DNA of 64,000 bases from a bacterium UBP13_UBA5359 (GCA_002410925.1 DHPR01000012.1:208643-272642), one strand, 5' to 3'; counted from the stretch's first letter, positions 15,870-61,732 are shown. The notes: a model not told the origin generated them from the sequence alone. Program-made: numbers and translations.

Positions 15870-16982
15870 TTAGAGCGTTACCTGCAACCTATGTAGAAGG
15901 ATGCGGCCCTGTCCGTCCTCTATGCTCCAATGCGTCAATAAAAATTCAGATTCCGATAATCGCAACAGGGATGGTTGTCCAAATTTTAGAGTCTTAAATA
16001 CTGATGAAAGTCTTCCTGCTACATCCGAGCTATCGCCACCCCATACCTTTTTTTCATATATTACCTGCCATTTCTCGTAGCTCAGATCTACCAATCTCAC
16101 AAAAAGGCCGGTATCTGCTTCTCCACGATGGGCATGGACTGTAAGTAATTGACTGCCGCCAAGCCAAATCAGGTTTGATGCCTGTGCTTCAATATGAGTA
16201 TCGATGGGCTGCGACCATGTATATCCATTGTCATGGGAAATGGTGAAGTGGTTGTTTAGGCTGATCCCCTTGTATTGATTATATGCCCAGGCAAGTGCAA
16301 CTATATTGCCATCACTCATCTCGCAAAGCCTTGATTCAAACGGCGTAACGGATCTATCTATGGTTTCAAAGAATGAAACGCTGTCGTCCCAACTACGGCC
16401 TCCATCTGCGCTTCGCAAGAGTATGCCGAGTTGCCCGGATGGCAGCGTTCCATCCCACATTGAGAATAATCCGCCCGATGCAAGTAAATCTCCGTTTTTC
16501 AACTGTATACATGGCCCGGATACTTCTATAAGCTCTGCGCGCGTCCGGGGTACCACGCCAGGTACGCTCCATGTTCTTCCGTCATCATTAGAGAACGATG
16601 TTATTATGTCTCCAGATAAAATACCGTTTGTTTCTGGATTACCAATTGCATATTCAGGATTGATTCTATAGAATATGTATCCCATAGCAATTATTTTCCC
16701 ATCGTTGAGCACCGTAGGTTTTAGAAATATTGATACGGGAGAATCAAATGCATCTCTACTGCATAACGGCCCCTGCAACTGCCAGGTCTTTCCATTGTCT
16801 ATTGAACGGGAAATATATGTAGTAAGATCAACAGATTCAAATGCTTCTCCTATAGCAAAAAGTGCTATTAACTCCTTGTTTTGCAGTTGCTCTATTCCCG
16901 GAAAATAACCATGGCGGCTACGAAGATGTTGTATTGGATTATCAAAGACTATACTTCTATTTAGAACATCTATTTTAGGCAT
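15870..16982 (-). CDS. BNR/Asp-box sialidase-like protein, no signal peptide
   Basis: SIDNGKTW, SNDDGRTW, SADGGRSW, SHDNGYTW. Confidence 0.85.
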   Translation of the reverse strand: MPKIDVLNRSIVFDNPIQHLRSRHGYFPGIEQLQNKELIALFAIGEAFESVDLTTYISRSIDNGKTWQLQGPLCSRDAFDSPVSIFLKPTVLNDGKIIAMGYIFYRINPEYAIGNPETNGILSGDIITSFSNDDGRTWSVPGVVPRTRAELIEVSGPCIQLKNGDLLASGGLFSMWDGTLPSGQLGILLRSADGGRSWDDSVSFFETIDRSVTPFESRLCEMSDGNIVALAWAYNQYKGISLNNHFTISHDNGYTWSQPIDTHIEAQASNLIWLGGSQLLTVHAHRGEADTGLFVRLVDLSYEKWQVIYEKKVWGGDSSDVAGRLSSVFKTLKFGQPSLLRLSESEFLLTHWSIEDGQGRILLHRLQVTL

Positions 16983-17076
16983 TTCGATTCACCAATCATA
17001 TCGTCGAATTAATCCCCACTGCTGTAAAATTCCGGTAGCAGAGAGCCTTTTCATATGAGAACAGGTAAGCTGTGTT

Positions 17077-18216
17077 TTAGTCGCCATACAGCCATTGCAG
17101 CTCAATTCGTCGGATACACATATCCTGCAGAACACAAACATCTTTGCCGCCGCCGCAACAGTAGGCCAGCAGCACCGCATCTTCTACAAAATGTATTGTC
17201 GTGTAGCAGAATCCGCGCTCTGGGTCTGTTTCAATAAGCTTGCCATGCGCCCATGTGGCACCTTCATCCTCGCTTATGGCGGCTACCAGCGGTGTTCTGC
17301 CCCAGGTAGGTACATCCATTCGCAAGGATGCCGGCGCCAGCTTTCCGCTCCAGTCGTTCCAGACTGCCAGCAGGTGCCCGGTAGAGGGCATGCGTTTGAT
17401 GCTGAGTGGCGAGCAAGGAGATATGAATCCCGATGGAGACGGTGGAGTCCAGGTATCTCCGCCATCACTGGAATACAGCTCATACTGGCACCCATTACTG
17501 GTACGGCAGTATGCATAGAGTTGCCCATTCTTCAATTCCACTACGCCCGGCTCCTGCAGACCGGAATCGCTACGTACCGGCATAGCCCACCAATCACGTG
17601 ATTCCCGCCACGTGACTCCGCCATCATCCGAGATGAAGAAGATGGCTATGCCACGCCCATCCACGGCCAAGTATGGGTTCTGTTTACACTCGGCAAGAGG
17701 TAACTTGCTACGGTGATAGGCTGCCGGAATTACCAGCCGCCCGCCGGATAGTTGAATAACACGATCATTATTTACAACAAAATATCCCGGCGCAGGGATA
17801 CATAACCGGGGCTGGCTCCAGGAACCTCCTTCGTCATCAGAGGTCCGCATCCAAAGGTTGCAATCTGAGAGGCTGTTCTTTTTTAAATACCATAGGCCTA
17901 TGCGCCCGTCCTGTAATCGCAAGAGTGATACGCTCATGACATTACAGCCGCCATCATTCTTCACTAATACCTCATCATCCGTCCAGGTGTGCCCCCCATC
18001 CGAAGAGTATCGAGCGCAGATGTGTGCTGGAGCTGTATCATCCCAATTATCTCCATCATAATAATGGGTATATGCAAAGAGGATTCGCTCATCGGCCAGT
18101 GCAACAAATGAGCCCTCCGAATTACGCGGATTGTTTTTTCTATGCATAAACGACAGAACGATTCCATTGTCCCCTTTATTGTTAATGTTGCACTGTGCCG
18201 CTTGATCCATCGCCAT
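17077..18216 (-). CDS. BNR/Asp-box sialidase-like protein, no signal peptide
   Basis: RNSEG, SSDGGHTW, SDDEGGSW, SDDGGVTW, GLQEPG, SSDGGDTW, RTPL, SEDEGATW. Confidence 0.9.
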   Translation of the reverse strand: MAMDQAAQCNINNKGDNGIVLSFMHRKNNPRNSEGSFVALADERILFAYTHYYDGDNWDDTAPAHICARYSSDGGHTWTDDEVLVKNDGGCNVMSVSLLRLQDGRIGLWYLKKNSLSDCNLWMRTSDDEGGSWSQPRLCIPAPGYFVVNNDRVIQLSGGRLVIPAAYHRSKLPLAECKQNPYLAVDGRGIAIFFISDDGGVTWRESRDWWAMPVRSDSGLQEPGVVELKNGQLYAYCRTSNGCQYELYSSDGGDTWTPPSPSGFISPCSPLSIKRMPSTGHLLAVWNDWSGKLAPASLRMDVPTWGRTPLVAAISEDEGATWAHGKLIETDPERGFCYTTIHFVEDAVLLAYCCGGGKDVCVLQDMCIRRIELQWLYGD

Positions 18217-18266
18217 TATCTTTATCCTTTCCGTAACCTTTTATGGAATATTAAATATCCCTGATC

Positions 18267-20417
18267 TTATCTTTGCTGTCCAATCTCTGCTGCGGCAAAT
18301 TCTTTGATGGATGGTATAATAAACTCCACGCTCTGGTTTGTAATTGTGCCGGAGAGTTTTTGGGGGACGCTGCCAGGCTGGTAAAGCTCCAGACCTGCAC
18401 GTTTGATACTTTTGTCCAGAGCGACTCTTACTTTGGTGTTTTGCACCGGCCGGCCGCTGTGGTTGAGGAAATAGAGCAGCGTGCCGCCGCCTTTTGCTTT
18501 ACGGCGCATGGCTACTTCCATTGCAGGAGCAGTCTTTACTTCCAGCAGACGGTCTTTGCTCAGAGCCTCCTGCATGATGGTTCCAAAGAGTTTCATGCAC
18601 CAGGCTTCGCGAGAGGTTTTATTCACCGGCTCTTCCAGAGAATCCGTAACCTCTCCCTGAAAAAGTGTGACGTCATTTGGGCCGATGTAATATACTTTGC
18701 CCTTGCCGTAATTATTTACAGTTATGGCCGATGCTCCATCTTCATAGGCTGCCAGCGTTAAGGCGCCCTTTCCCGGAAGGATTGCTGCGCTCACGGGCTT
18801 GGGCAGCCTCTCTGAGAAGAATAGATCATAGCCATTGAATTTCATCTCCTTGCACTTTGCCTTCAACCATTCCGGGTGGCGATTTGCCATGCGGTAGAAA
18901 AGGGTGGCATCGTTACAGTCAGCCGCTATGGATAATCCTCTTAGTTCTTTGGGGAGGATTTTGCTGCTTAGCTTTAACGTTGTATGCTCTTTGGCCTGCA
19001 CGGGTTTGCCTTGAGTAAGACTTAAGAGCGCCGGATTGGAATGGGGTTTGCCGTATTCATTATAGAAGGCGGTCTCTCCAGTAATAATAAGCGTGCCACC
19101 GTTCTTTACATACCCGGCAAAAGAATCCGCCTCATATTTGCTCATACATTTAACGTCCGGCAGTACTATTACAGAGTAGCCTTTCAACTTCTCCGGCAGG
19201 CTGCTCTCTTGGCAGAAGGGCACGGAGATTATATCCGCTGGTACCTGCATGTGGGAGAGGGCGTAATAGGTGTACTCCGTCTGGAAGGATGCGCCGTAAA
19301 GCCCGGTCATTCTGCTCCAGGGGCCCCACATATCCTTCATGCGGAAGGTGTTTTCAGAGAAATAGATACCCACCTGGCTGACGGGATGCGTATCCTGCCA
19401 CAGATGCTTGTTCTCCCTGGCAAAATCGAGCGCCCTTCCCAGAGCTTCAATATTTTCCGTCCTCTTTTGCGAGAATGCAGCCATAACGAACACAGTTAAA
19501 TTTGATGCGCCATTCATCAGATATTCGAACGGCTGCCGGTAGACATCATCCGGGTTCAGGTCCATATAGCCTTCAGCCGGCCAGCCGGTATCGCGATGTG
19601 AATCATAAAACTGGATCACCCCGCCCAAGGAGCGCGCATCCATAGCCGCTCTATGCCATCGAATCATGAACCCCGACCATTGCAGCGGTCTTCTAAAAGC
19701 TTGAAAATAAGGATCGGTTATTAGCCGGCAAGAAGCAGGGAAACTCTTGAAGCGGTTGATGTCAACACCCATCTGTGATCCGGACTCATACGTGGTGGGC
19801 GTCAAACAGATCATTAAACTTTTGCTGGGAAACGCTGTCCTATACCCTTCTACAATGTTTGCCAGCCTGTCCGTAAAGACTTTTTGCCTGAACCACACGG
19901 TGTTACGCCAGCCATTGGAATCATTAAGACGATCCCGGCTGAGCGTTGGCCAGCAGCCGAACTGCTTGTAATATTCGTTCCGCAGATCTATATCTTTCTC
20001 TAACTCCGGTATACTTTGCAGCTTCCAATCGCCGTAGCCCCAGCTAGGTTCATCTATTTCAAAAGCACTTACTCCGCTCAAATATTCAGAACCGATATTC
20101 TGTGTACACCATGCCTTCAACTGTTCAGATATCTTTTCCGGCGCCGAGGTAGCCCAAAAATTCTTCCACGGCATCCAGCCGCAAACTACGGGAAGCTTGT
20201 TTTCTTTATAGGCCATTCCCTCACCCTTGGCAACGTAATTATGATGCATCGTAGCCTCTTCTATCCCATATTTTTTACAAAATTCCAGGCACTGAGGAGT
20301 ATACTCGGCATTAGGATAGAGATAGACGCTGATAAATTTCTCTGCTGCTATGGCACCCGATATCAGATTATGCAGCAACAGCAACATAAAAATTAAGCTT
20401 ATTTTTGCGCCTCTCAT
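18267..20417 (-). CDS. Secreted glycoside-hydrolase-like protein with beta-galactosidase trimerisation-like domain (GH42-related architecture)
   Basis: Signal peptide; IDEP; VGIYFS; YSVIVLPDVKCMS...YVKNGGTLIITG; NNYGKGKVYY. Confidence 0.7.
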   Translation of the reverse strand: MRGAKISLIFMLLLLHNLISGAIAAEKFISVYLYPNAEYTPQCLEFCKKYGIEEATMHHNYVAKGEGMAYKENKLPVVCGWMPWKNFWATSAPEKISEQLKAWCTQNIGSEYLSGVSAFEIDEPSWGYGDWKLQSIPELEKDIDLRNEYYKQFGCWPTLSRDRLNDSNGWRNTVWFRQKVFTDRLANIVEGYRTAFPSKSLMICLTPTTYESGSQMGVDINRFKSFPASCRLITDPYFQAFRRPLQWSGFMIRWHRAAMDARSLGGVIQFYDSHRDTGWPAEGYMDLNPDDVYRQPFEYLMNGASNLTVFVMAAFSQKRTENIEALGRALDFARENKHLWQDTHPVSQVGIYFSENTFRMKDMWGPWSRMTGLYGASFQTEYTYYALSHMQVPADIISVPFCQESSLPEKLKGYSVIVLPDVKCMSKYEADSFAGYVKNGGTLIITGETAFYNEYGKPHSNPALLSLTQGKPVQAKEHTTLKLSSKILPKELRGLSIAADCNDATLFYRMANRHPEWLKAKCKEMKFNGYDLFFSERLPKPVSAAILPGKGALTLAAYEDGASAITVNNYGKGKVYYIGPNDVTLFQGEVTDSLEEPVNKTSREAWCMKLFGTIMQEALSKDRLLEVKTAPAMEVAMRRKAKGGGTLLYFLNHSGRPVQNTKVRVALDKSIKRAGLELYQPGSVPQKLSGTITNQSVEFIIPSIKEFAAAEIGQQR

Positions 20418-21886
20418 TTAGATAGTCCTCCTGTATCAAGCTCAACCTCTTGCTGCAGCGGGCGGCAAGCGGGGTGGTAAACCGTCAACCTTATCTTGCC
20501 GTCTGCAGGCCTGGCTGTTTTTATGCGGTATACTCCGCCCTGCCCCAGCCCTTCAGTGCCGTCGCCATTAACTGTCTTTTCACTGCCGTTTATATTAATC
20601 ACTACCCGGCACTTGTCAGCGGGCTTGTTCAGGTAAGGAGCTACCGCCTCGCCCAGATCCTCCAGGTATTTATCCCAACCATAAGGGCGATTCCATGGTC
20701 CCCTTATGGGGTTCAAGTAACTCCAGATCAGAATGCCGTCCACCCCGCGAGAGAAAGCTTCTCTGACAGCGATCTGAATCTCTCCCGGCTTTAGCGGCCC
20801 GGAGTTATCCCCGCAATCGTACCCCTGCAGCCAGTAATAACAGGAAAAGCCCCTCTTTTGCGCTGTGTCGACAAATTTGCGGGCGACACTTTCATCCCCC
20901 GCCGTCAGCGGCGACGCTTTGCCCACAGCCCAGTAGATGGCTGTTTGAATGCCGTCAAGGTGCCCAATATTCATAACGCCGTTCCAGAAATCCAACCCGT
21001 AGTAAGGGTGGATATCGGTCAAAGTGGTAACCTGGCAAGAGATTTGGGGGAAGCAGCGGCGCATAAGCTTAAAGATATCTTCAATCCGCTCCGTAACCGG
21101 CTCGCAGTAAAACTCCGCCATCTTGCTCCAGGCAGCCCGGTCGCTCTCTTGCATATATTTTGCCTTGGGCATACCGGCAGGCCAATCCACCGGTATGCTG
21201 CTTTTAGTTGCTTCTTCCAGGTTTACCGGCTTAGGCATTGCAAGGCCGTACTTCTGCTGAAAATGCTTGCTGCAGTGCCGGCAGTAGCAGAACTCACCGG
21301 CAGTCTGGCCGGGTTCGTTCATTATCACGCCGTCCAGGCGAACGCCGTGTTTTGCCATTGTTGCTACGCATTCAAGCATGGCTTTGTTAAAGGCCTCTTT
21401 TACCTGGGGATTTCTATAGCAGTGTCTGTTATTTATTTTTCTGTCTTTCCAGTCTATTTTAAAGAGCTCCTCCTTTGTAGATAAAAAGCGTTCGTAGGAT
21501 ACGGGGTTCAGGCCGCTCAGCCAAAAGACTGTAAAGCCTTTATCTTTAAGCATATCGGTAACGCGTTTAGCCTCTTTGATATCGCTCTCTTTAAGTAACC
21601 CTAAAGGCAATCTCAAAGAAACCGTGTTAATCCCTCGTTTTTTTAAGGCTTGCAACTCCCTACCAGTAACCTGATCCGGGTTCATTTGCATGGCGATAAC
21701 AGGTTCACGCTGCACCTTAATGGTTAATTCTCCGCCGCTCCCGGTTGCAGCATATTGAACATCTGCGCCTAACACTCCTCTTATGGTAGTGCTGTCAGCC
21801 GCCTGGGCATGACAGCTTCCGGCGCAGGCGGCAACCAGGAATAGCATTGCACATACAGCAACTTTGCTTGCAAGCGGTGGTTTCAT
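20414..21886 (-). CDS. Secreted putative TIM-barrel glycoside hydrolase
   Basis: Signal peptide; DGVIMNEP, FCYCRHC, YWLQG, GVDGILIWSY. Confidence 0.55.
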   Translation of the reverse strand: MKPPLASKVAVCAMLFLVAACAGSCHAQAADSTTIRGVLGADVQYAATGSGGELTIKVQREPVIAMQMNPDQVTGRELQALKKRGINTVSLRLPLGLLKESDIKEAKRVTDMLKDKGFTVFWLSGLNPVSYERFLSTKEELFKIDWKDRKINNRHCYRNPQVKEAFNKAMLECVATMAKHGVRLDGVIMNEPGQTAGEFCYCRHCSKHFQQKYGLAMPKPVNLEEATKSSIPVDWPAGMPKAKYMQESDRAAWSKMAEFYCEPVTERIEDIFKLMRRCFPQISCQVTTLTDIHPYYGLDFWNGVMNIGHLDGIQTAIYWAVGKASPLTAGDESVARKFVDTAQKRGFSCYYWLQGYDCGDNSGPLKPGEIQIAVREAFSRGVDGILIWSYLNPIRGPWNRPYGWDKYLEDLGEAVAPYLNKPADKCRVVININGSEKTVNGDGTEGLGQGGVYRIKTARPADGKIRLTVYHPACRPLQQEVELDTGGLSK

Positions 21887-23034
21887 GGGATAGCAATCTC
21901 CTTCTCTTGCGAAAGTCCGGTTTTGCTCAAGCTCTTATCCAGCGCCAGCACGCGGTAGTAATAAGTGACCCCTTTTCCCAATAACACCTTGCCATCCTCA
22001 TTCTTTGCCGGGTCCAGATAAGAAGTCTGATCTCCCTTTACCCTGGCAATAAACTGCGTAGCCCGGCCCAGCATCTTCCCGGATTCAGTAAAACGGTAAA
22101 TCCTGTACTCCGCTGCAGAAGAAGAAGGCTTCCAGGTTAGCATAACGCCGTTTTCATCGGCAGCGGCCTTGATATCCGTAGCGGGCTCTATGGCGAGGAG
22201 CTCATAAGTAAAAGGATACTCAAAGTTCTGCCAGCTTCCGCTCTCTCCCTTTATCTGGACTATAAGCTTGTAGCTGAGTTTTCCCAGGTTATATACGGGC
22301 AGCGTCAAAGTGCCTAGATAAAAGGTGTTGTCATCGCCATAGCTGGTCTTGGCTTTTATAATGCCGGAGGGCCCGCTGAGCATAGCCCTGATATTCGCAG
22401 GCTCAACCTTGCCGGAGAGCTGGATCTCCAGAATCTCCGGCAACCCATCCATTGACTTCTCCTGCCCCTTGCTTATCTCCACCGGATAATAGGTGGTGAA
22501 ATTAAAATCACAGCTGCCCCATCGGGCGCCATTGATGGTAAAGTCACCATCGGGGTATAAATCGCCTCCATATTGGTACCAGTAGTAGTAGCATTTTTCA
22601 GGGGCCAGGGGAACGGAGAACTCAAAATAATACGGCGTGCCGGGCTTTGTATTTACATTCATGGGAAAATAAAAGTTATCTGCAAAGGCCGGCTTCTTTT
22701 CATCGGTAATGAAGAGCAGCGGCTGCGAATTTTTGGTGGCTGCATAGTTTTCTTTGCACTCCCAGAGCCTGATCTCCAGGTTCGCATCGCCGGTATATGC
22801 GCCATCATCTTTCCTTCTGTAAACCACCGCTCTAAGAATACTCAACTTATCTTTAGAAGGGGTAAAACTCTGGCCAACAACTCCTTCGCCAAACAGCCAT
22901 TTAGGGTCATTTGAGAAGCAGTTGCCCTGATCCTGATAGTGGGCAATCACCTTGTTTGGCACCACATCTGCCCCGGCCTGGCTGGCCGCAGCAATACCGA
23001 TCAAACATAGAACAACCGTCATCCATTTTTTCAT
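21883..23034 (-). CDS. Secreted protein with C-terminal fibronectin type III domain
   Basis: Signal peptide ending AGA; LTWKPS...YRIYR...SYLD...YYYRVLALD. Confidence 0.7.
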   Translation of the reverse strand: MKKWMTVVLCLIGIAAASQAGADVVPNKVIAHYQDQGNCFSNDPKWLFGEGVVGQSFTPSKDKLSILRAVVYRRKDDGAYTGDANLEIRLWECKENYAATKNSQPLLFITDEKKPAFADNFYFPMNVNTKPGTPYYFEFSVPLAPEKCYYYWYQYGGDLYPDGDFTINGARWGSCDFNFTTYYPVEISKGQEKSMDGLPEILEIQLSGKVEPANIRAMLSGPSGIIKAKTSYGDDNTFYLGTLTLPVYNLGKLSYKLIVQIKGESGSWQNFEYPFTYELLAIEPATDIKAAADENGVMLTWKPSSSAAEYRIYRFTESGKMLGRATQFIARVKGDQTSYLDPAKNEDGKVLLGKGVTYYYRVLALDKSLSKTGLSQEKEIAIP

Positions 23035-23114: not shown

Positions 23115-23786
23115 TCACCAATTTTCAACCACTGCGCCATCCATCACGCAGTATTGCACATTCATTGATCTCAGTTCCGTAGTGCCTATAACGGCAACAT
23201 GCCCATCGGCAAAGAAAGCGTTGGCTTTACCATTATGGCGCAGATGAAAAAATCTCTGGGTACTTATCCAACCGTATATGTAATAACATTGGGGCGAACC
23301 CTGGGACGAACTGCTTACTGAATCCGCCAGCACTATCTGCCAGGCAGGGCCTTTGGCTGTATAAGGCACCCCGCCTACCCCTTTATAATCATCGCCCCAG
23401 AGCCGTTGCGCCCAGCCATGCTCATACACCCATAAGCCATATACCGCTGAGTAGCTACCACTGAATTTCGCCGGGGCGCAGCTTGGGCAGACTAAACAGG
23501 CCGGGTCGCCAAGGTATTTACCTTCTACCAAACGCTGCGCCCAGGTCTTTCCCATTGCGTTTGAATACGCCGACGGAGTCCAACCATCATTGTCTTCCGC
23601 ATAAAGCATCAAGGCCATGCCGCACTGCTTCAAATTATTGGTGCACGCCGTCTGCCGCGCCTTTTCTCTGGCCTGGGAGAAGACAGGAAAAAGAATAGCA
23701 GTAAGGATTGCAATTATAGCAATAACAACGAGTAATTCTATAAGAGTAAAGCCCTTCTCCTGTTTTCCAATATAATGCTTCCTCAT
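23115..23786 (-). CDS. Prepilin-type N-terminal cleavage/methylation protein with H-X9-DG motif (DUF1559-like), copy 1
   Basis: [47 protein letters not shown]. Confidence 0.93.
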
Positions 23787-23862: not shown

Positions 23863-24990
23863 TTATGCCACCGGCAGCCTCCTTTTCGGCATAAGGCTGG
23901 TCTTGCGTACTTTCAATTCCACCGGCAAAACAATTTGTCGCCCGCCTGATTTACCTTTCTCAATGGCCTGCAGGAGCACCTCCATAGCCTTCTCTCCCAT
24001 TTCGGCGGCGGGATGCCTTACGGTTGTCAGATCTATACCCCACTGACCGGCCAGATCTATGTCGTCAAAGCCGCAAAGGGCAATATCCTGCGGCACTTTT
24101 ACGCCCTTTTCCCTCAATCCTCTCATCAGACCTATGGCCATAGAGTCTCCAACGGAAAAGACCGCCAGGGGGCGCTCCGTTATGGAGGCACTTCTATCGG
24201 CCATCCGGTAGCCATCCTTTTCATATCCGTGCAACGGGTCCGTGCTTGTGGCTTCCAGGATAGATCTCTCGTCAAAGGAAAGCCCTGCATCCTCAATGGC
24301 CTTCCTGTAGCCGGCAAACCTGTCCTGTATTTCCGGCTGCATATGCAGCCCCTCAACCGTCATGAAGAATATTTTCCTGTAACCGCCCTCTAGCAGGTGA
24401 TTGGTAAGCGCATACCCTCCCTGGTAATCGTCCGGAATGACAAAATCAATATCGGCGGCAACTTTATGCGAAGGAAGCCTGGAAACCAGAACAAAGGGTT
24501 TCTCCTTCTGCAAAAGAAACCTCACTCCGGGAGACAACTCTCCCTGCATATAGCTGGGCGAGATCAGAAAGCCGTCCACTTCGGAAAGCAATCCCCTTAT
24601 ATACGATTCTTCCTTGAGAATATCTCCCTCGCTATTGCATAGGACTATGTAAAACCCGTTTCTCTCGGCATAATTCTCAATACCGCGAATAATCCTGGAG
24701 TAGTAAGGGTTGTCGGAGTGGTAAACGATCACTCCTATCCTATTCTTTCTTCTTGCTCTTGCAGGAGAAACAAAACTGCCCATTCCCTGTTTACGGCAAA
24801 TCATTTCCTCGTTAATCAATTCATTTAAAGCCTTGATGACGGTATGCCTGCTTACGCTGAATTGCTGAGCCAATTCATTCTCAGAGGGTATCTTCTCTCC
24901 TTCGGCATACTGACCAGCTGATATTCTATGCCTAAGAATATCTTTTATTTGCTTATATTTCGGTTTTATTCCCGAAAGCTTCTCTTCCAT
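23863..24990 (-). CDS. GntR-HTH + LacI-type sensor regulator (AraR-like)
   Basis: IPSENELAQQFSVSRHTV, QGMGSFV; sensor GFDD...LTTVRHP; RBS GAGGAG before ATG 24990. Confidence 0.92.
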   Translation of the reverse strand: MEEKLSGIKPKYKQIKDILRHRISAGQYAEGEKIPSENELAQQFSVSRHTVIKALNELINEEMICRKQGMGSFVSPARARRKNRIGVIVYHSDNPYYSRIIRGIENYAERNGFYIVLCNSEGDILKEESYIRGLLSEVDGFLISPSYMQGELSPGVRFLLQKEKPFVLVSRLPSHKVAADIDFVIPDDYQGGYALTNHLLEGGYRKIFFMTVEGLHMQPEIQDRFAGYRKAIEDAGLSFDERSILEATSTDPLHGYEKDGYRMADRSASITERPLAVFSVGDSMAIGLMRGLREKGVKVPQDIALCGFDDIDLAGQWGIDLTTVRHPAAEMGEKAMEVLLQAIEKGKSGGRQIVLPVELKVRKTSLMPKRRLPVA

Positions 24991-25033
24991 ATTGCTCCTC
25001 GATAAACTCTCTGCAATCAACAGGTTGTCCGTG

Positions 25034-51370: not shown

Positions 51371-51400
51371 TTTACTTTCCTCCATTCAGCAAAATGGCTT

Positions 51401-52135
51401 TTAATTTATTTTCCACAGGTTCTTCGGTGATATCGTGTGAGACCAAGGCATCCATTGAACATGCCCATCACAGAAAGCCCAGTTGTTTCCACCGGAATGA
51501 TAACCCGCTTTGCCGGCATCGTTACTCAGGGTGCCGTTTTGAACCGTGTACTCGTATGAATAGCCCGCATTATAACATTTTCCACTCTGCGCTCCCACGC
51601 CGACACAATTATTGCTGTGATGATGTTCGATTAGTAATATAGTTGAAGTTGCATCGGCAATCTCCGCCATTGACCGGCCGCCTTTTTTACTGTCGACATT
51701 AGCGTCGTCACTGGATTTATCTATTACGGCTATGTTAACAGCATAGCTATTACGAGCATAATTGCTGGGATATACCCAGTCTGCCATAATCTTACTGTCT
51801 GACGGACATAAAAAAACCGAATTATCTTTCCACCCACTCAGCTTAAAGCCAACATAGGGAGCGATCAGCATTTGCCAGGTCGGCCTCTCATTATTGTTCA
51901 GATAAAGCCACCAAGGAAATTTTTCATCGTAATCTTGTACATACATTAACAGCCCTGCACTCAACTGTTTCATATTATTCGCACAGGTAGTTTGCCTGGC
52001 TTTTTCCCTGGCTTTTCCAAAAACGGGAAATAGAATGGATGCTAATAATGATATTATGGCAATCACCACTAATAATTCAATAAGCGTAAATCCTTCCTTC
52101 TTGCACACACCGGTTTTAGCTTTACAGATCATCAT
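51401..52135 (-). CDS. Prepilin-type H-X9-DG (DUF1559-like) protein, copy 2
   Basis: [64 protein letters not shown] before ATG 52135. Confidence 0.93.
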   Translation of the reverse strand: MMICKAKTGVCKKEGFTLIELLVVIAIISLLASILFPVFGKAREKARQTTCANNMKQLSAGLLMYVQDYDEKFPWWLYLNNNERPTWQMLIAPYVGFKLSGWKDNSVFLCPSDSKIMADWVYPSNYARNSYAVNIAVIDKSSDDANVDSKKGGRSMAEIADATSTILLIEHHHSNNCVGVGAQSGKCYNAGYSYEYTVQNGTLSNDAGKAGYHSGGNNWAFCDGHVQWMPWSHTISPKNLWKIN

Positions 52136-52256
52136 TACTAACGCCTCCCTGCTCTGCATTTATTAATCAGATATTAAACAAATATCGGATATTCGCTAAT
52201 AGATATTAAAACGGACACTGCTATACGCTGCTCTATCCCTTTCAAAATAAGATCTT

Positions 52257-53282
52257 CTACCGCTGGGAACTCTCTCTGATCACCAGCGATATAGGCACTT
52301 CGACCTGGACAGTTTCATTAATGGAGCCCTCTATAATCTTCCGAATCATTTTAATAGCTGTTTTAGCTATTAAAGCATTATTTAAATCTATACTGGATAA
52401 TTGTGGATAAGTACATCCGCAAATTTCAATATTATCACAGCCTATCACGGCCACATCATCAGGAACCTTGATTCCATTCCTCGATAATTCCGCAAGTAAA
52501 ATAGCAGCCTGGCTGTCATTATAGGCCAGAACGCCTTCGGGAATACTACCTGATCGAATAAATTTCCGAGCAAGCTCTACTTTCTGCTCAATATTAGGAA
52601 GTGGAGATTTACTGAAAAACACCTGCGGTTCCGCCTGATTGCATGCCCTCAGATAATCGGTAAAACCTTTTACAGCAGGCAATTCATTATAGCCGCCCAG
52701 AAAACCGAAGCTTCGACACCCTATATCCACCAGATGGCGAGCTGCTAATCTGCCTACCTTTATGCTGTTATGAGAAATCGAATGCAATTCACTATGCAGC
52801 CTTCCTCCGTAATGTAACAATTTAAGGTTATAAGGCGGATTGGAGTATTTGCGATATCTTTCTATGCTGCCGTCAATAGAGGCGAGAGTGATAGCAGCAT
52901 CTACCCGGCCATCCCGCATAAGATCGAGATAATACTCTTCCATCGCGGGATCACCGTTTGTGATGTACGGCGTGATTTCCAGGTTATTACTACGAGCTTC
53001 CCGTATCAGATCTCTAACTAACGGCAGGATAAAGGGGGCCAATATATGTACAACTAAACCGATACTATCACTTTTACCAAAGAAAAGATCCTTTGCCTTC
53101 TTCTGTGGAACATAACCTAATTCTTCCGCCACTTGCATTATTTTCAGTTGTGTAGCCGGGCGAATACCTACATCGTCTGCTTTACCGGAGAGAACCATCG
53201 ATACTGTTGATGCGGCAAAGCCGCTTGCTTTGGCGACTTTATGCAAGGTGGGCCTGTTTATCTGAACCGTTTTAGATTTCAT
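52257..53282 (-). CDS. LacI-family transcriptional regulator
   Basis: TLHKVAKASGFAASTVSMVL, LGYVP, VPDDVAVIGCD, PQLSSI, LVIRES. Confidence 0.94.
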   Translation of the reverse strand: MKSKTVQINRPTLHKVAKASGFAASTVSMVLSGKADDVGIRPATQLKIMQVAEELGYVPQKKAKDLFFGKSDSIGLVVHILAPFILPLVRDLIREARSNNLEITPYITNGDPAMEEYYLDLMRDGRVDAAITLASIDGSIERYRKYSNPPYNLKLLHYGGRLHSELHSISHNSIKVGRLAARHLVDIGCRSFGFLGGYNELPAVKGFTDYLRACNQAEPQVFFSKSPLPNIEQKVELARKFIRSGSIPEGVLAYNDSQAAILLAELSRNGIKVPDDVAVIGCDNIEICGCTYPQLSSIDLNNALIAKTAIKMIRKIIEGSINETVQVEVPISLVIRESSQR

Positions 53283-54999: not shown

Positions 55000-57834
55000 C
55001 TACTCCTTTTCCCGAAGCTTTACACCGGTAAACCACTCCAGAACACCACGAGCAAGGAGGGCGTTGAAACCGGTGAGCGGAGCTTCCTTATCTCCGCTGT
55101 CTATATTTATATTGCCGTCGAAGAGCACTTTGCCGCTGCCGGCCAGGCCTAGCACAACTACCGAATTGCCATCTTTATCGGCAACCACCGTTACCCCTTG
55201 CGGTCCCGGAGAAAGAAGGAGGTGATCATAGTACATATGCTCCATACCTTTGCCGGCCGGCAAGCCGCCGACTGCAGAATGTGCGGCCCGTATCACCAAC
55301 TCTCTATCATCCTTGCGACCGAGGGCATCGACGCATATTTCAGGGAACGGAGTTGTTCTCCCGAATGGTGACCTCTCGAAACCACAAAGGTCATGCTGCA
55401 GTACTAACCCTCGGCCGCCTTCGATTACGTAACGGCGCAGATTCTTAAGGTAATCATCCCTGGAAATAGATTTGCTCTGAAAGACAAAGACGCAGTCGTA
55501 CTTGTCGAGCGCCGACAGGGAGAGAGAATCGATAATTTCAGCCTTTACATTGGCAAAACCGTCCAGATACTCTTTGGTGCCCACGGCCCCCAGTCCATTA
55601 TAGAGGCCTACCCTAATCGTCTCCTTTACAACTCTGGGCTTGAGGCTTACCTTTAATGACAGTCTTCTCTCCCGCAGCATCTTCCTGATCTCTTCAGGAG
55701 AGATCCTGATATCCCCCTTTTTGCCGATCGGGCTGCCGGCAACGATATCAGGTTCGTTTGCAGAAGCTTTGAGCACTTTTTCGGCATGCCCCCAATCACG
55801 CTCAAACTCTGCCGCCGCTTCGTCGATCAGATCTGCGGCTTCCTTTGCTTTGCCCTTATCCGCCAGAGCCCCGGCCGCATAAACTGCGTAACGGGCTTCA
55901 GCGATCATATGCCACAAAGGCATGCGCTTATAGTAGTATATGAATGTCTTTCGTCTGTACTTATCCAGCGTGCCTATATACGGATAGGCTGCGTCCAATG
56001 CCGCCATGGCGGTTGAAGTGGCTTTGACCTGCGCAGCCATACGCTCGGGTCCGTCAATGAGGTCGGGGTATTTCTGAAAGGCTATATCCTTGGGGGCCGT
56101 ATTATCCGGGTCAACATCGGCCAGCGGAGTGCGCCTGTATTTGTTGGCCAGAAACATGCCTCTACCCGGATCGGTAATATAGAGATTCAGCACTCCCGAC
56201 GAGAAGACAGGGACTATTCTGCTGCCGACCTCCTGCCCGAAGAATGCCTTGCAGGCCCGTGGCAGCCATTCCTCCATAATCACCCGCGGTTCCCTGTGAT
56301 CACGCTCGGCATCATAGTACCATCCTTTGAAGGTTTCGCTGCCGGGAGCGGATGTATTCCAGGTATATTCAGCCGAACAGATGGCGCTCATCCATGCTTC
56401 GTAAAGGTCATATCCGCCTTCGAGGAGAAATATATCACCGGTATTGCCATCGAAATTACTGCCGTTAAGCCTGTGCCAGGTACCGAAATATCCAAGGGGC
56501 ACAAAACTGTGAGCATAGACGGTCATGGCACGACCGGAGAAGTAATGGCGATATTCCCGCGCTTCTCCCGGCAAGGCCATCCAGGTCATGGGCATTAAAC
56601 CGCTGTCCGCCCCCTTATGGACGTTGTGCCAGTAATCCAAAGAATTCTTTCTCCAAATGCTTTCGCTGATTCCTGTAAACCGGCTGAAATCCGTATAACG
56701 GGCATTATATGGATAGATACATGAAGTGATCGTTACTTCGGAAGCCTTGGCAGCGAAGATCTCGGACCAGAGATTGAACTGATGCACACTGCCTTTCCAG
56801 CGATCGTTGCCGAAGCTCTGCCGGCAGAGCCTGCAGCGTGTGCTCCAGCTCTCCGGATCTGCGGCCCCTCCTCCATCAACGGGATGCAGAAACATCATCT
56901 TGAAATGGCATTCGCGGAAGAAATCAGCCGTCCTGCCTATCTTTTCTCTGGCCAGGTCGTCACGGGACCAGCAGTAGTAACAGCCGCCGTCCCCACTCTT
57001 GTAGACGCAATCCCAGTCTTTGAATTCCGGCCTCTCCTTGTCCAGGACACCCCAGCCCAGGTAGGTACTCTCCCACTTGGCCGGGTATATGCCCCTTTCG
57101 ATGGCATAATCATTTATTCTTCTGATAAACGCTCTCTCCCCGGGAGGGATCTTTCTGACATCTCCTCCCCAGGCATCAAAGAGGACATTCATCTTAAAAC
57201 GAAGGGTCCAGTCAATGGCAGCTTTGTAGGCCGCCTCCCTGGCGAACGAGGTCTCTCCCTGCGCCCAATTTCCCAGCCTCCTTACAAGCGGAGCATTGGA
57301 GCGGTAACGATAGTCAGGTTTATCATAGACCCTGGCTGCCTGCAGAACTACATCCTTCCCGTTTTGCTGAAGCATCTGCCTTAGCGTCATGGCGCCGTAG
57401 AGGGTGCCGATATTATCGCTGCCGATGATGGCCAGACGCTTTCCAGCAATATCGGTATCCATAACATAACCCTGGGGGCCGGGGTCTTTTTCCGTAACCT
57501 TCAGAGAAATGCTCTTTATCAAAGCGTTAACACGACTGTTTTGCACAGGAAGAATGTAAATGCCGGGTTTGCTTGTATTTTCAGCCCTTTCAATTGGAAG
57601 TTCCTTTCCACTCAATTCGTGTATGCGCTTGTTAATCTCTTCAGCGGCAAGACGGCATTGGGGATTGCCCATATCGGTGAATATGCGGCAATCTGCCGTA
57701 TCAAAGACGACTCCAAGGCTCTTGTACAGCTTGGGCATGGGTACTAAGTTCGGTGTTCCGGCGTCAGCCCCGGATCCGAAGAAGATAATAGCCATCAACA
57801 AAACGGCCATCATATGAAAATAACAGGTTTTCAT
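55000..57834 (-). CDS. Secreted protein with GH20-type N-terminal (zincin-like) domain, GH84/GH20-like barrel and C-terminal GATase-like domain
   Basis: Signal peptide; LVPMPK, PQGYVM, IIGSDNIGTLYGAMTLRQM, VYDKPDYRYR; AEYTWN; LDKYDCVFV...YVIEGG...GSGKVLF. Confidence 0.72.
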   Translation of the reverse strand: MKTCYFHMMAVLLMAIIFFGSGADAGTPNLVPMPKLYKSLGVVFDTADCRIFTDMGNPQCRLAAEEINKRIHELSGKELPIERAENTSKPGIYILPVQNSRVNALIKSISLKVTEKDPGPQGYVMDTDIAGKRLAIIGSDNIGTLYGAMTLRQMLQQNGKDVVLQAARVYDKPDYRYRSNAPLVRRLGNWAQGETSFAREAAYKAAIDWTLRFKMNVLFDAWGGDVRKIPPGERAFIRRINDYAIERGIYPAKWESTYLGWGVLDKERPEFKDWDCVYKSGDGGCYYCWSRDDLAREKIGRTADFFRECHFKMMFLHPVDGGGAADPESWSTRCRLCRQSFGNDRWKGSVHQFNLWSEIFAAKASEVTITSCIYPYNARYTDFSRFTGISESIWRKNSLDYWHNVHKGADSGLMPMTWMALPGEAREYRHYFSGRAMTVYAHSFVPLGYFGTWHRLNGSNFDGNTGDIFLLEGGYDLYEAWMSAICSAEYTWNTSAPGSETFKGWYYDAERDHREPRVIMEEWLPRACKAFFGQEVGSRIVPVFSSGVLNLYITDPGRGMFLANKYRRTPLADVDPDNTAPKDIAFQKYPDLIDGPERMAAQVKATSTAMAALDAAYPYIGTLDKYRRKTFIYYYKRMPLWHMIAEARYAVYAAGALADKGKAKEAADLIDEAAAEFERDWGHAEKVLKASANEPDIVAGSPIGKKGDIRISPEEIRKMLRERRLSLKVSLKPRVVKETIRVGLYNGLGAVGTKEYLDGFANVKAEIIDSLSLSALDKYDCVFVFQSKSISRDDYLKNLRRYVIEGGRGLVLQHDLCGFERSPFGRTTPFPEICVDALGRKDDRELVIRAAHSAVGGLPAGKGMEHMYYDHLLLSPGPQGVTVVADKDGNSVVVLGLAGSGKVLFDGNINIDSGDKEAPLTGFNALLARGVLEWFTGVKLREKE

Positions 57835-57898: not shown

Positions 57899-58753
57899 TC
57901 ACTTGCCGGACGTCTGTTTTATCCATTCCGCCAGGTTCCAGAAGAAGGTCCTGTAGATATCCGTGGAGACCATGCCCGATATCACCGTCAGCTTGATCCC
58001 TATGGACAGACAGAAACCCTTTCCGAGCCTGTTCAAGGAGATTACAGGGCAAGTTCCTTCAAGGAGTTCGGCCTTGTCCATGAAGCTCTTTCCTTTGATC
58101 TGCATTACAGAGGCATCGGCTATCGCTTCAGCCCCGTGCAGATCATAGTAAACGGTGAATCTGGAGGCCTTGTCATCCTCTGGAAGATCAACATCGCTTA
58201 AGCTTCCGGGCAAATCCTTTGACAGCAGGGGAACGAAGGATGAAAAGCGTATGCCTTTGATAATGTTTATGTCCTGTGAGGCTATAACAATGCCGGCGAC
58301 ACGCTTCCAGTAATCCCTCATTTCCTGAAGATATTCCCTGGTTATCAGGCCCCTGTCCAGCAGGCCGTTACCCTTTATGTCAGGCATGTAAGCGCCGTTT
58401 ACGCACCGGATAAGTATCCCTCCGCTGCACACATATTCCTCGACTGCCCGCATACCTTCACGGCTGAGAACACTCCTGTCCTCGGATATGATAACGGCTT
58501 TGTACCCCGATAGCAGATCGGCGGAGGCGATATCCTCCTCCCTGAGAACGCTTACATTGAGCGATTTATCTCTGGACAAGAGATAGTGCCATTTCTTCTG
58601 CGCACCGCCGGCAGCGATCTTTCCGGTGGAAGCATCCACTCTTGGAGAAGGCATAAGGGCTATTTTTACAGGGTCGTCTGCTCTGGCTACCGATAATCCA
58701 CAGATAAGAGAGAGCAGAAACAAAATAAAGGGGATATGGATTCTATTACACAT
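57899..58753 (-). CDS. Secreted protein with class I GATase/trimerisation-like domain
   Basis: Signal peptide; LSGYKAVII...EEYVCSGGIL...NRLGKG. Confidence 0.6.
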   Translation of the reverse strand: MCNRIHIPFILFLLSLICGLSVARADDPVKIALMPSPRVDASTGKIAAGGAQKKWHYLLSRDKSLNVSVLREEDIASADLLSGYKAVIISEDRSVLSREGMRAVEEYVCSGGILIRCVNGAYMPDIKGNGLLDRGLITREYLQEMRDYWKRVAGIVIASQDINIIKGIRFSSFVPLLSKDLPGSLSDVDLPEDDKASRFTVYYDLHGAEAIADASVMQIKGKSFMDKAELLEGTCPVISLNRLGKGFCLSIGIKLTVISGMVSTDIYRTFFWNLAEWIKQTSGK

Positions 58754-58779: not shown

Positions 58780-59892
58780 CTAATCTTCAAACATATCGGC
58801 CATCGTAACGGGAAGCCCGCTGTTCAGGGATTGCAGGGCATTCAAGCCCATTATGGTCGACAGCGCTCCGCTCTTTTCATCTGTTTCTACAGGCAAATCA
58901 TGCGCAATACAGCGTCTGAAGTGCTCCAGAGCTCCGTAATGGCCCTTATCCACACTGGGAAAGCTGCGATAATACATCGCCCGCTCGATCTCCTCCCGCG
59001 TCACTTCCGCTCTCCACTTGGACTGAAGCTGTCGCAGCTTGGCCACAGAGATACGGTTGTTGCCTTCGGGACTGAACGCCAGATCGAAATTCTTATCCTG
59101 CTCTCCATCAATCGAGGTGCACTGCAGCTCCACAAAATTATCCATGACCAGCGCGCTGAAGCCGGAGAATATTTCCATTCTCTCCTTGGGATAGCCTGCC
59201 GTGCCGCACCCGCCGGATATGATAGTGGCCGCTGTCCTGTCCGGATAGGCAAGAGTAACGATATTATCGTCCGACCTGCCTCCGATGGCATAGATGGATA
59301 CCGGTCTGCTGTCGGTAATCCAGTTGAGCAGGTCGAAGACATGCGTCAGCTCATGTATCATTGTCGATTCACCGGCAAGCACCTGTTCCTGATGGAATTT
59401 GGGCCAAAGCCTCGATTCCCCGACAATGCGATAACAGATCAGCGCTTTGTCCTGCTTCATCTTGTGAAATATCCTTTTTACCTCCCTCATAATGGGACTG
59501 TAAGAGCGATTGAAACCCACCTGCAGCTTGATGCCCGTGCGCCTGATTATATCCACAATTTCCGCTGAGTCCTCATACCCCATGCTCATCGGTTTTTCTA
59601 CATAGATATGCTTGCCTGCCTCCGCCAATACCCTGATGGGTTCGACGCGGAATTTGGGGCCGGTGCCCAAAATAGCCATATCTATCTCAGGGTCATCAGC
59701 TATGTCTCTGTAATCGGTTGTCATATAGCAGGAATTGTATTCGCCTGTAAGAGAATCGAGTATGCCTCTATCGACATCGCAAAGTGCATGCAATCTCAAT
59801 TTCGGGTTGGCCACCGTATGCGGCAGATGCTTGCCCTGAACAAACCTGCCGCAACCGACTATACCAACATTTAAAATTCCTTCTTTATCCAT
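58780..59892 (-). CDS. Gfo/Idh/MocA oxidoreductase
   Basis: VGIVGCG, AGKHIYVEKP, QVGFNRSY, HELTHVFD. Confidence 0.93.
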   Translation of the reverse strand: MDKEGILNVGIVGCGRFVQGKHLPHTVANPKLRLHALCDVDRGILDSLTGEYNSCYMTTDYRDIADDPEIDMAILGTGPKFRVEPIRVLAEAGKHIYVEKPMSMGYEDSAEIVDIIRRTGIKLQVGFNRSYSPIMREVKRIFHKMKQDKALICYRIVGESRLWPKFHQEQVLAGESTMIHELTHVFDLLNWITDSRPVSIYAIGGRSDDNIVTLAYPDRTAATIISGGCGTAGYPKERMEIFSGFSALVMDNFVELQCTSIDGEQDKNFDLAFSPEGNNRISVAKLRQLQSKWRAEVTREEIERAMYYRSFPSVDKGHYGALEHFRRCIAHDLPVETDEKSGALSTIMGLNALQSLNSGLPVTMADMFED

Positions 59893-59958
59893 TCAAAATA
59901 TCCCTCATTTTTCGGTATTTGCCTAGGCCCTTCCCGAGTCTTCACAAAAGACCCTTTG

Positions 59959-60621
59959 CTAAAAATCATTGAGCATAGTCAGTTGCAATTGGTTTTCCTT
60001 CATTACTCCCACATGCCCATCTACAAAAAGAGTGTTGGCAGTCCTGTTGTGCCAGTACTTTACATACTGCGCAGTGCTCAGCGACAGCAGCCATTTGTCA
60101 AATGCGGAACTGGCATCAACGCAATAGATTATCTGGCTGATCTTCCTGATATCCGTAACCGCCATCGGCTCATGCTGCGTACCTGTAACCTTTCCTCTGA
60201 GATAAAAATTAATCATATAGGTAGTGGCCATCCTATCCTCTATACCGTCCTTGCGCACGTACCAACCATCACGCGCACCTCTTCCTGCGGGTGCGGACGG
60301 ACATCCCCATATGCCCCAACCGGAAGGCCATTTATTGCCGTTCTCGGCATATCCAATGACGTTGTTGCCGGTATATGGCAGGAGCCTCGTGAACCAATTC
60401 TCCCTGTCCCACGCGCTCCAGCATATAAAGGGCAGCATCTCATCGTAGTCCTGAATGTACATCTGCAGGGCCATCCCCACCTGTTTGAGATTGCTGGCAC
60501 AGGCAGCCTGCCGAGCCTTCTCCCTGGCCCGGGCAAAGACCGGGAAAAGTATGGCAGTCAGCAGTGCTATTATAGCGATAACAACTAATAGTTCGATCAA
60601 TGTAAACCCTTTTCTCTTCAC
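59959..60621 (-). CDS. Prepilin-type H-X9-DG (DUF1559-like) protein, copy 3
   Basis: [57 protein letters not shown]. Confidence 0.93.
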
Positions 60622-60637
60622 CTCAAAAACCTCCTTT

Positions 60638-61732
60638 TTAGCTTTTCAGCGCTTGGTGATTAAGATTGCATTTTGCTACCGGCACGGTTCCCCCTATCAT
60701 ATTCATCAGCTTGCCGGCTGCATTCCTGTTCACCTCCCGTTGGGAACGCTCTACCAGGATATCCACAGTCTCCGCGGGAACGGCGCAGTTATCTTCATCG
60801 ACGTAAGCAGCCAACGCCGTACGTTTCCCCGGACATGCTTTCTGCAGGAATTCTCTTACTTCGCAGGTGAGATCACTGCCGGCCGCGATTACAGCGGTTG
60901 CCTGCAGCAGCATTTTCCTCTGCTCGTTATCCATGTCCACTATGCTCGGCCCGGCTTTATCCGAGCCGAAATTGACAATAATTTCTCTGCCCGACAGACC
61001 ATGCTCCCTGACGGCGGATCTGTAACCGCGCAGCATCCTGCCGGCGCCTCTCTCGATAGTTCTGTCCAGAGGCAAACGTTGGCTGCAGACAAGAGCAATA
61101 TCGGTATGCCCCTCGGCAATCATTTTGGATGTCAGATTATAAGCAATTGAGCAATCGTCGCTCAATACTGTCGGCACATCGAGATTCAAATAATCGTTGC
61201 CAACTACAACGAAGGGGCAACCGCTCATCATCAGGGAATATACATCACCCTCGATTACAGGGCTAAGCAGTATCAAACCGGCAATATCCCTCTTCTTTAT
61301 GCTGTTGTCAAGCAGATTATTTATCCCGAAGATCCTTCTGTCCCGAGTTGTAAAGATGTTTAAGCCATAGCCCGCTTCATCGGCAATATCCTTTATTACG
61401 ATTAGACTGCCGGCTACATACCGATTATAGGTGGAAAAGATCTCATCGAATACTATGCCTATATCCCTGGAAGACGAAAACACCCCGGGAGATGGCACTT
61501 TGTCGGATACCACCGTTCCTTTGCGCGGTCGGCGCGATATATATCCATCGCGCATCAGATCGGCATAGGCATCCCTGAGAGTTACCGTGCTGACGCCAAG
61601 CATTTTGCTCATCTCCATGTCCGGCGGAAGCTTGACGCCCGCAGCCAGTTCTCCCGACAGGATCTTCTCCCTTAAGGCATCTCTAATCTGCTTATATATC
61701 GGTTTTCCTTCCTGCAACTCAATGGTTAGCAT
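60638..61732 (-). CDS. GntR-HTH + LacI-type sensor regulator
   Basis: PIYKQI...LPP...LGVSTVTLR...RRPRKGTVV followed by periplasmic-binding-protein-like domain. Confidence 0.88.

Follow-up and report, generated by a model that had tools for sequence, protein, structure and literature searches.

The DNA considered here is a window of 64,000 nucleotides (G000:C40:208643-272642) from a bacterial genome of 2.25 Mb in 40 contigs, rated 98% complete (G000), in which one gene module occurs three times. Each copy consists of a sugar-type regulator gene, a gene for a prepilin-like protein of the DUF1559/H-X9-DG family and genes for exported glycan enzymes, all on the minus strand. This arrangement, first described in a sequence-only reading of the window, was recovered in full by open reading frame (ORF) calls and Pfam and NCBIfam profile searches, with 33 window proteins in the Pfam scan. 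The regulator-pilin-enzyme order is confirmed as real and lies far above chance. As to its meaning, the pilin-like proteins may be accessory pilins, each specific to its operon, of a type IV filament machine that they share, capturing glycans or tethering enzymes, an explanation that we put forward tentatively, as plausible but short of probable.

Profile searches of the whole genome identified 39 distinct DUF1559 genes (PF07596) and 36 regulators with the sensor domain PF13377, and this domain lies at most 600 nucleotides (nt) upstream on the same strand for 17 of the 39. When gene order was shuffled, as the sequence-only reading had proposed, the association stood out clearly: 15 of 35 assignable DUF1559 genes have a co-oriented PF13377 regulator immediately upstream, against a mean of 0.54 and a maximum of 5 in 20,000 permutations, built on a crude custom map of 2030 ORFs. 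By a hand tally from Pfam scans of all pilin loci, the upstream neighbour is a sugar-type regulator in 24/39 cases (18 LacI/GntR types with a periplasmic-binding-protein domain, three AraC, one GntR-UTRA and one DeoR co-oriented, and one AraC divergent). A gene for a carbohydrate-active enzyme (CAZyme), a carbohydrate-binding module (CBM) or a LamG domain lies within three co-oriented downstream genes for 26/39 pilins, and at position +1 for 18/39. LamG-like proteins gather in the same neighbourhoods, 18 of 21 being within six genes of a pilin and seven at +1, where about 5/21 would be expected, as 23% of ORFs fall in such neighbourhoods. Signal-peptide-like N-termini, assigned by a simple hydrophobicity score, occur in 63 of 108 downstream genes and in the first downstream protein in most cases, and many modules elsewhere in the genome also carry an orphan solute-binding lipoprotein gene. 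Two other species of the genus follow the same order (8/29 in G001 and 18/51 in G002).

The three window proteins and 36 others in the genome match the DUF1559/H-X9-DG family (PF07596 with PF07963; TIGR04294 with TIGR02532) and share its prepilin site, its conserved segment after the helix and its C-terminal H-X9-DG motif. They differ in being short (about 180-315 amino acids, aa) and in that the Pfam match covers just the first 30-80 of 268 positions, where that of Paludisphaera proteins is full-length, and their gene context in this genome is regular. The pilin genes of modules 1, 2 and 3 (23115-23786, 223 aa; 51401-52159, 252 aa from the longest start; 59959-60621, 220 aa; all minus strand) score 37.5, 33.9 and 35.1 bits with PF07963 (cut-off 21.2) and 34, 53.9 and 43.4 bits with PF07596 (gathering score 23.3), matching profile positions 2-39, 2-60 and 2-62. 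TIGR04294 exceeds its cut-off of 19 for pilins 1 and 2 (25.2 and 24.5 bits) and is not among the NCBIfam matches listed for pilin 3. As had been noticed from the sequence alone, all three share a stretch of 14 residues and an exact H-X9-DG motif, placed about 30-40 residues from the C-terminus, and diverge in the middle, with 34-43% overall identity. The site G↓FTLIE is present in all three; pilin 1 carries KG↓FTLIE together with a 12-residue motif, the motif sequence of pilin 2 is HSGGNNWAFCDG, and pilin 3 has an exact 12-residue motif. Across the genome, custom patterns found a G↓F(T/S)L.E site in 35/39 DUF1559 proteins and an exact H-X9-DG in 29/39. Two shortened DUF1559 genes of 84-85 aa, with signal and helix only (G000:C17:1136-1393 and G000:C40:56190-56444), are probably decayed copies, the former still behind an AraC regulator.

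Comparison of the paralogues shows how unevenly these proteins are conserved. Mature residues 1-30 are 79% identical and the globular remainder 22%, and the variable part indeed differs between modules. Codons agree at only 37% of the conserved residues; since synonymous sites differ in this way, the N-terminal identity reflects purifying selection, and recent gene conversion as its source is ruled out. Five modules, module 1 included, are syntenic between G000 and its congener G001, and the orthologue comparison covers these five. In all of them the pilin is less conserved than the regulator (75.6-91.5% against 83.4-95.4%) and similar to the exported enzymes. Over the entire pilin the ratio of non-synonymous to synonymous substitution (dN/dS) is 0.06-0.29; taken separately, the helix has 0.02-0.08 and the globular part 0.06-0.33. 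The module 1 orthologue is 75.6% identical, with a ratio of 0.29. The pilin-like genes are therefore functional and under constraint, with no domain-wide diversifying selection. For modules 2 and 3, synteny in the congeners was not found: similarity to G001 is confined to the housekeeping flank and the 3' portion of the 1230-aa gene, where it stops at a contig end.

An AlphaFold2 model of the module 1 pilin, built from a 37-paralogue alignment, predicts a 50-residue helix (residues 15-65) and four strands, the last of which bear the H-X9-DG motif, at a predicted local distance difference test (pLDDT) score of 72.8. In a fold search independent of Foldseek (VIA), the top 20 rows are all pilins or pseudopilins, among them Thermus PilA4 (Z 5.7), EpsG (5.2) and PulG (4.2). 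Foldseek against the PDB returned nothing at E ≤ 0.001, its best match having E 0.15, and a sequence search of solved structures matched the N-terminal helix only.

The prepilin peptidase and assembly genes that the sequence-only reading had suggested locating do lie elsewhere in the genome, as full type IV pilus (T4P), type II secretion system (T2SS) and Tad machinery; in total there are two A24 peptidases, three PilB/GspE-type and several PilT-type ATPases, platform proteins and four secretins. A T4P-type cluster on contig C1 encodes PilB, PilT, PilC, PilD, a pilin, a second pilin-like gene, PilM, three small genes and a secretin. Contig C13 carries a complete T2SS with GspD/E/F, GspH/I/J/K, L/M/C-like proteins and its own true GspG (151 bits; L031:13844-14287, between gspF and gspH), and a Tad-type set, an extra PilB/GspE-type ATPase, three PilT-like ATPases and a fourth secretin are also present. 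The C1 pilin directly after pilD has the H-X9-DG motif and matches the paralogue consensus at 64-65%, including the segment after the helix, against 40-48% for GspG, which lacks that segment; the dispersed DUF1559 genes thus look like paralogues of the T4P cluster pilin. A role for these genes as stand-ins for a missing major pseudopilin is ruled out, as the T2SS operon has its own GspG-K.

The accessory-pilin explanation is favoured because the assembly helix and prepilin site are conserved, a family member sits inside the T4P cluster and the globular part is variable, and because there is one copy per sugar operon, LamG proteins are almost confined to the operons and some relatives bear lectin modules. 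From this combination we infer filament incorporation, the choice of machine and the binding of glycans or enzymes by the pilins. Each module would be a sugar-controlled operon comprising a LacI/GntR-type repressor gene, a pilin-like gene and genes for Sec-exported glycan-binding or glycan-cleaving proteins, often LamG- or CBM-bearing. One shared prepilin peptidase and type IV filament machine would handle all the operon-specific pilins, which it could do because the prepilin signal and N-terminal assembly helix are nearly identical. The likeliest machine would be the C1 PilB-PilT-PilC-PilD-pilin-PilM...secretin cluster, whose own pilin is of the same family, and the dispersed pilins presumably use it. 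The variable globular part would give each protein a substrate-specific function at the cell envelope, most likely capture of the cognate glycan or tethering of the LamG-bearing enzymes expressed with it to a (retractile) filament. Import of oligosaccharides would follow, by way of the binding protein that the operon itself encodes and one of three ABC permeases shared between operons.

Longer relatives in the databases bear on this proposal. Among 120 of them listed with a precomputed Pfam column, 15 carry LamG, eight F5_F8_C, two a GH63-like enzyme and three a LacI/GntR regulator. Seven modular relatives that were scanned have a complete small pilin module (prepilin site at about residue 5-35, H-X9-DG at about 137-162) followed by a C-terminal lectin-type module; the lectin-bearing proteins include P0012, P0022 and P0036 (LamG) and P0025, P0028 and P0041 (F5_F8_C). 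The regulator-pilin and GH63-pilin proteins were rejected as real fusions and are read as merged gene calls that show gene order only, because the prepilin motif is internal; among the regulator-bearing ones it stands at residue 341 in P0006, and the custom pattern found no site in P0019 and P0091. Streptococcus sanguinis PilC has been described as a pilin whose ConA-like lectin module binds glycans (PMC9934059). It shares with the present family a class III signal peptide and the association of a pilin module with a ConA-like/LamG module, found here in the relatives with C-terminal LamG or discoidin modules. In the window, by contrast, LamG sits on the neighbouring enzyme and not in the same polypeptide as the pilin, and the genome has dozens of paralogues under sugar regulators where the S. 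sanguinis protein belongs to one tip complex in a pilus operon.

It is unlikely, though worth weighing, that the pilins serve instead as cargo-specific export adaptors, joining the T2SS pseudopilus or its tip and recruiting co-expressed Sec-exported enzymes for passage through the secretin. Laminarin is reported to have raised secretion-system transcripts in cultured Lentisphaerae (PMC11361711), and one source labels relatives 'DUF1559 family PulG-like putative transporter'. The genome's complete T2SS and four secretins would provide the route, and signal-peptide-like N-termini are nearly universal in the first gene downstream; however, the T2SS has its own GspG/H/I/J/K, and the paralogue helix resembles that of the T4P-cluster pilin more closely than that of GspG. 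Among NCBIfam models the window N-termini score best against GspG (TIGR01710), but at 37-40 bits they fall far below its equivalog cut-off of 88.85 and match over the N-terminus only. The likeness to GspG consists of an alignment of the N-terminal 55-65 residues and the predicted superposition on EpsG and PulG, whereas GspG lacks the DUF1559 family signature and the window genes are not in a gsp operon. The lectin modules fused to relatives' pilins also fit extracellular ligand binding better than a periplasmic piston, and we know of no precedent for cargo-specific pseudopilin paralogues, though no search was aimed at one.

The question of uptake leads to another explanation. As the sequence-only reading had stated, the modules contain no ABC permease, TonB/SusC or pilus-assembly gene in the Pfam scan of the window. 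A single TonB receptor match (PF00593) was found genome-wide, on another contig and not among the window proteins, and no SusC-type gene occurs in the modules, SusD not having been searched for. The genome has three ABC permease pairs and 13 solute-binding-protein (SBP) loci, none of the latter within 3 kb of a permease pair; 11/13 lie within eight genes of a pilin and 10/13 have a lipobox by custom pattern. The resulting layout is many-to-few, with most of the binding lipoproteins inside pilin modules. Uptake therefore probably proceeds through operon-encoded orphan solute-binding lipoproteins that use the three permease pairs in common. The earlier analogy with the SusCD slot of Bacteroidota holds as far as the lack of a SusC-type gene in the modules is concerned, but the pilin does not fill that slot by itself, because the orphan SBPs and shared permeases probably handle uptake.

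The abundance of SBP loci relative to permease pairs, and their closeness to pilins, would also suit non-filament membrane anchors: cleaved proteins that stay in the inner membrane and hold enzymes, oligosaccharides or orphan SBPs near the ABC permeases, much like the archaeal bindosome. We consider this improbable. The family's Pfam name is SBP_bac_10, and a study of R. baltica, with 74 DUF1559 genes, some of them stress-responsive, calls it a solute-binding protein family (PMC2754498). In Tuwongella, 25 of 91 N_methyl+SBP_bac_10 proteins are reported as detected, mostly in membrane fractions, their genes often flanked by signal-peptide genes (PMC8567305), and Sulfolobus sugar-binding proteins are described as carrying class III signal peptides and relying on an assembly system of their own (PMC3047682). 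The bindosome thus resembles the present system in its many substrate-specific prepilin-signal proteins, its one assembly system and its link to sugar uptake. The archaeal proteins, however, are true ABC binding proteins, whereas here the SBP_bac_1 proteins have lipoprotein and not prepilin signals, and the prepilin-signal proteins have the predicted fold of a small pilin and not of a periplasmic binding protein. Beyond its own Pfam name, no window prepilin-signal protein matches an SBP family, so that an SBP fold and a class III signal are not combined in any of them. A simple anchor would, moreover, not require purifying selection to keep 30 residues, E5 among them, at 79% identity, and a family member is located in the pilus machine cluster.

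By far the least probable explanation is an envelope sensor or co-regulator by which the pilin-like protein would signal extracellular glycan or pilus state to the operon regulator: the tight, conserved linkage to the regulator gene, the three fusion-like database proteins and, by analogy, the pilin-based signal described for Caulobacter PilA (PMC7196804) would suit it, but the regulators, of LacI/GntR type, are soluble, have a sugar-binding domain of their own and lack a membrane segment, the 'fusions' with their internal prepilin site are most simply merged gene calls, and AraC, DeoR and UTRA regulators occupy the same position, which argues against a specific protein-protein partnership.

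Several results nevertheless weigh against accessory pilins as the explanation. By the hand tally, 13/39 DUF1559 genes lie outside a glycan context or have a context that is cut or unknown: two are at contig ends, five have no co-oriented downstream gene, two are followed by family-less exported proteins, two stand in unrelated contexts, one precedes the next module's regulator and one lies within the pilus machine cluster. The globular dN/dS values are ordinary, close to the 0.14-0.23 of the enzymes, and carry no diversifying-selection signature of an exposed surface. The AlphaFold2 model is of moderate quality only, with the variable loops 122-138 and 160-177 below 50 pLDDT, and the fold Z scores are low. 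Pfam detects neither a lectin module nor any other further domain in the window pilins (220-252 aa). Distances among regulators, pilins and enzymes show no co-variation across 15 modules (Mantel r 0.12, 0.04 and 0.10; p 0.17-0.39), thus giving no sign that the pilin tracks its enzyme. The totals of promoter-like and terminator-like sites do not exceed those of shuffled sequence, the complete T2SS is an equally possible partner, and a sugar-type regulator stands upstream in only 3/69 loci sampled across other phyla. A complex prediction that paired the globular domain of pilin 2 with the LamG region encoded just downstream scored 0.00 (mark 0.32) and speaks neither for nor against binding.

The survey of other phyla was a pattern-based scan of species-representative genomes, giving 78 named loci, 69 of them with a callable upstream ORF, from Armatimonadota, Verrucomicrobiota, Planctomycetota, Lentisphaerota, Kiritimatiellia, Omnitrophota, WS1 and others. 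The three loci with a sugar-type regulator are L045, L050 (divergent) and L102, and a T2SSF platform gene lies upstream in one of the 69. In a Lentisphaeria genome (G013) with 62 PF13377 regulators, at least three DUF1559 genes stand directly behind one among the 20 matches listed, with up to 28 further matches out of 39 that fall outside the listing across four genomes. Paludisphaera soli (G017) has 121 DUF1559 matches and seven regulators, none in the co-oriented arrangement and three with a divergent DUF1559 neighbour, judged by coordinates only, with gene ends unchecked. Regulator-then-pilin order was not seen among the matches listed for a Kiritimatiellae genome (G014) and a Verrucomicrobiota genome (G016), and an Armatimonadia genome (G015) has no PF13377 match. 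A universal rule for the DUF1559 family is accordingly rejected, and the tight regulator-then-pilin order is a lineage trait. The neighbourhood enrichment foreseen by the sequence-only reading therefore stands for this genome and its two congeners and fails as a general property of the family: the order is very strong in this lineage, less pronounced in one Lentisphaeria genome and a loose association in other lineages.

A fuller scheme, possible but doubtful, extends the accessory-pilin proposal to pilus-based polysaccharide utilisation. Each operon's sugar-induced pilin would ride on one shared retractile type IV pilus, 'fishing' for glycans or carrying enzymes, and the binding lipoproteins would feed the three ABC permeases. 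Bacteroidota polysaccharide utilisation loci (PULs) with SusC/SusD, and PULs of Gram-positive type, likewise equip each substrate-specific cassette with a sugar regulator, with proteins that bind or cleave glycans at the surface or after export, and with a part for uptake. The present modules differ from the former in having no adjacent SusC-like TonB transporter, from PULs with ABC systems in holding orphan binding lipoproteins and no ABC permeases, and from both in their constant extra member, the pilin-like protein. If the scheme were true, it would be a functional counterpart of SusC/D built from type IV filament parts, in a lineage essentially without TonB-dependent import, and would give the very large DUF1559/H-X9-DG family a first function. 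The polysaccharide-induced 'filamentous phage-like' structures around cultured Lentisphaerae could then partly be such pili.

Those structures are abundant filaments of 0.4-8 µm around the cells, reported to be induced by laminarin or starch and read by the authors as phages (PMC11361711); a pilus contribution to them may merit a check, given the sugar-regulated pilin genes in that phylum. Binding of dextran to fibres has been described in Planctomycetes (PMC5394234) and, like the Tuwongella membrane proteins, can be counted among the precedents for accessory pilins. The literature searched, supplementary tables not covered, yielded no link of DUF1559 genes to sugar regulators or CAZyme operons, and no paper in it states a function for DUF1559/H-X9-DG proteins or describes this gene context. 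The words pilin, prepilin and type II secretion are absent from the text of a planctomycete CAZyme-cluster comparison (PMC11131199), as are pilin, pilus, pili, prepilin, type II secretion and pseudopilin from that of two papers on PVC (Planctomycetota-Verrucomicrobiota-Chlamydiota) polysaccharide degraders (PMC13526803, PMC10880615).

Few uncharacterised paralogous families in Planctomycetota, Verrucomicrobiota, Lentisphaerota and Armatimonadota are as large as that of the DUF1559/H-X9-DG proteins, which number from tens to over 100 per genome. The present small genome offers an unusually clean context, about two thirds of its copies being in sugar-regulated glycan operons, one per operon, which makes their function testable on defined glycans. 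Should the pilins turn out to capture glycans or to carry enzymes, a new type of polysaccharide-utilisation architecture would be known outside Bacteroidota; as export adaptors they would instead be relevant to cargo recognition by the T2SS, which is an open question. The annotation of CAZyme clusters in these phyla would be affected.

The GTDB phylum of this genome comprises three species only, all in one genus. Its Mfd protein is 94, 86 and 63% identical within the genus and, beyond it, 42-45% identical to those of Armatimonadota, Clostridia, Bacilli and Chloroflexota. These similarities indicate an isolated and apparently Terrabacteria-like lineage, outside the PVC group. Secretins, together with SurA-like and YbgF-like genes, suggest an outer membrane.

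At the level of operon structure, pilin genes mostly start 16-111 nt past the stop codon of the regulator, with a GGAGG-type ribosome-binding site at the end of the gap. The window's pilin-like genes follow their regulators, as had been described; the gaps are short (16, 76 and 97 nt), and no terminator-like site lies within them in any of the three modules by consensus scan. The shortest gap is that of module 3, whose pilin starts 16 nt past the regulator stop and whose gap holds AGGAGG. The best promoter-like sites sit just upstream of regulators 1 and 2: two precede the module 1 regulator (25142-25115 and 25084-25056), and the best of the region, with 11/12 matches and a TG, precedes that of module 2 (53317-53289). 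Gap lengths and consensus scans suggest co-transcription of regulator, pilin and enzymes, although site counts not above those of shuffles make the promoter and terminator scan weak support for a single transcript.

All module genes described below are on the minus strand. The module 1 regulator (23863-25020) combines a GntR helix-turn-helix (HTH) domain (PF00392, 74 bits) with a LacI-type periplasmic-binding-protein sensor (PF13377, 114 bits); its start codon is ambiguous, the longest ORF beginning at TTG 25020. Behind the pilin gene come two exported proteins of no Pfam or NCBIfam family (21883-23034, 383 aa; 20414-21886, 490 aa) and a GH42M-like protein of 716 aa (18267-20417), all three with signal-peptide-like N-termini, and then two BNR_2 sialidase-like proteins (17077-18216 and 15870-16982). 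The first of the family-less proteins had been called an FN3 protein from the sequence alone, a label that the profile searches did not bear out. The first three enzyme-side genes occur in identical order in congener G001, where the two family-less proteins are 77-82% conserved.

The module 2 regulator belongs to the LacI family (52257-53282; PF00356, PF13377). Its pilin gene is followed by the gene for an exported protein of 1230 aa with an N-terminal LamG and a GH42-like region (47693-51385; signal-peptide-like N-terminus) and by that of a BD-FAE/alpha-beta-hydrolase esterase (46869-47672). In module 3, the regulator (60638-61741) again joins a GntR HTH domain (PF00392, 63 bits) to a LacI-type sensor (PF00532, PF13377), and the genes behind the pilin encode a GFO_IDH_MocA (GFO/IDH/MocA) oxidoreductase (58780-59892), an exported protein of 284 aa with no Pfam or NCBIfam family (57899-58753) and an exported GH20b/GH67N-like protein of 944 aa (55000-57834), the last two with signal-peptide-like N-termini. 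The span 15870-61732, previously treated as one locus, does contain the modules, but it also includes an unrelated housekeeping block at about 29965-46697 (mfd, pth, L25, prs, glmU and others) that belongs to no module.

The flank of module 1 carries GH123 (25195-26814, plus strand), an adjoining orphan ABC solute-binding protein gene (SBP_bac_1; 26866-28143, minus strand) and a DUF3999/F5_F8_C protein (28297-29565, plus strand), all identified by Pfam. The solute-binding protein gene counts among the genome's 13 SBP loci. Within 26866-28176, long ORFs occur on both strands (425 aa on the minus strand and 434 aa on the plus strand), and the family match to SBP_bac_1 is in the minus frame only. 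On the other side, 11263-14802 on the plus strand holds BNR_2 sialidase-like, DHDPS-family (N-acetylneuraminate-lyase-like) and GntR-FCD regulator genes, a catabolic cluster of sialic-acid type. This cluster and the two terminal BNR_2 genes of module 1 suggest that its substrates are probably sialylated host-type glycans, predicted to contain GalNAc. Elsewhere in the genome, two paralogous proteins of about 350 aa with a similar N-terminus and no Pfam match (G000:C3:42106-43158 and G000:C19:93078-94136; L020:7610-8662 and L021:7349-8407) each trail a giant GH123/CBM9 protein, in two different pilin modules.

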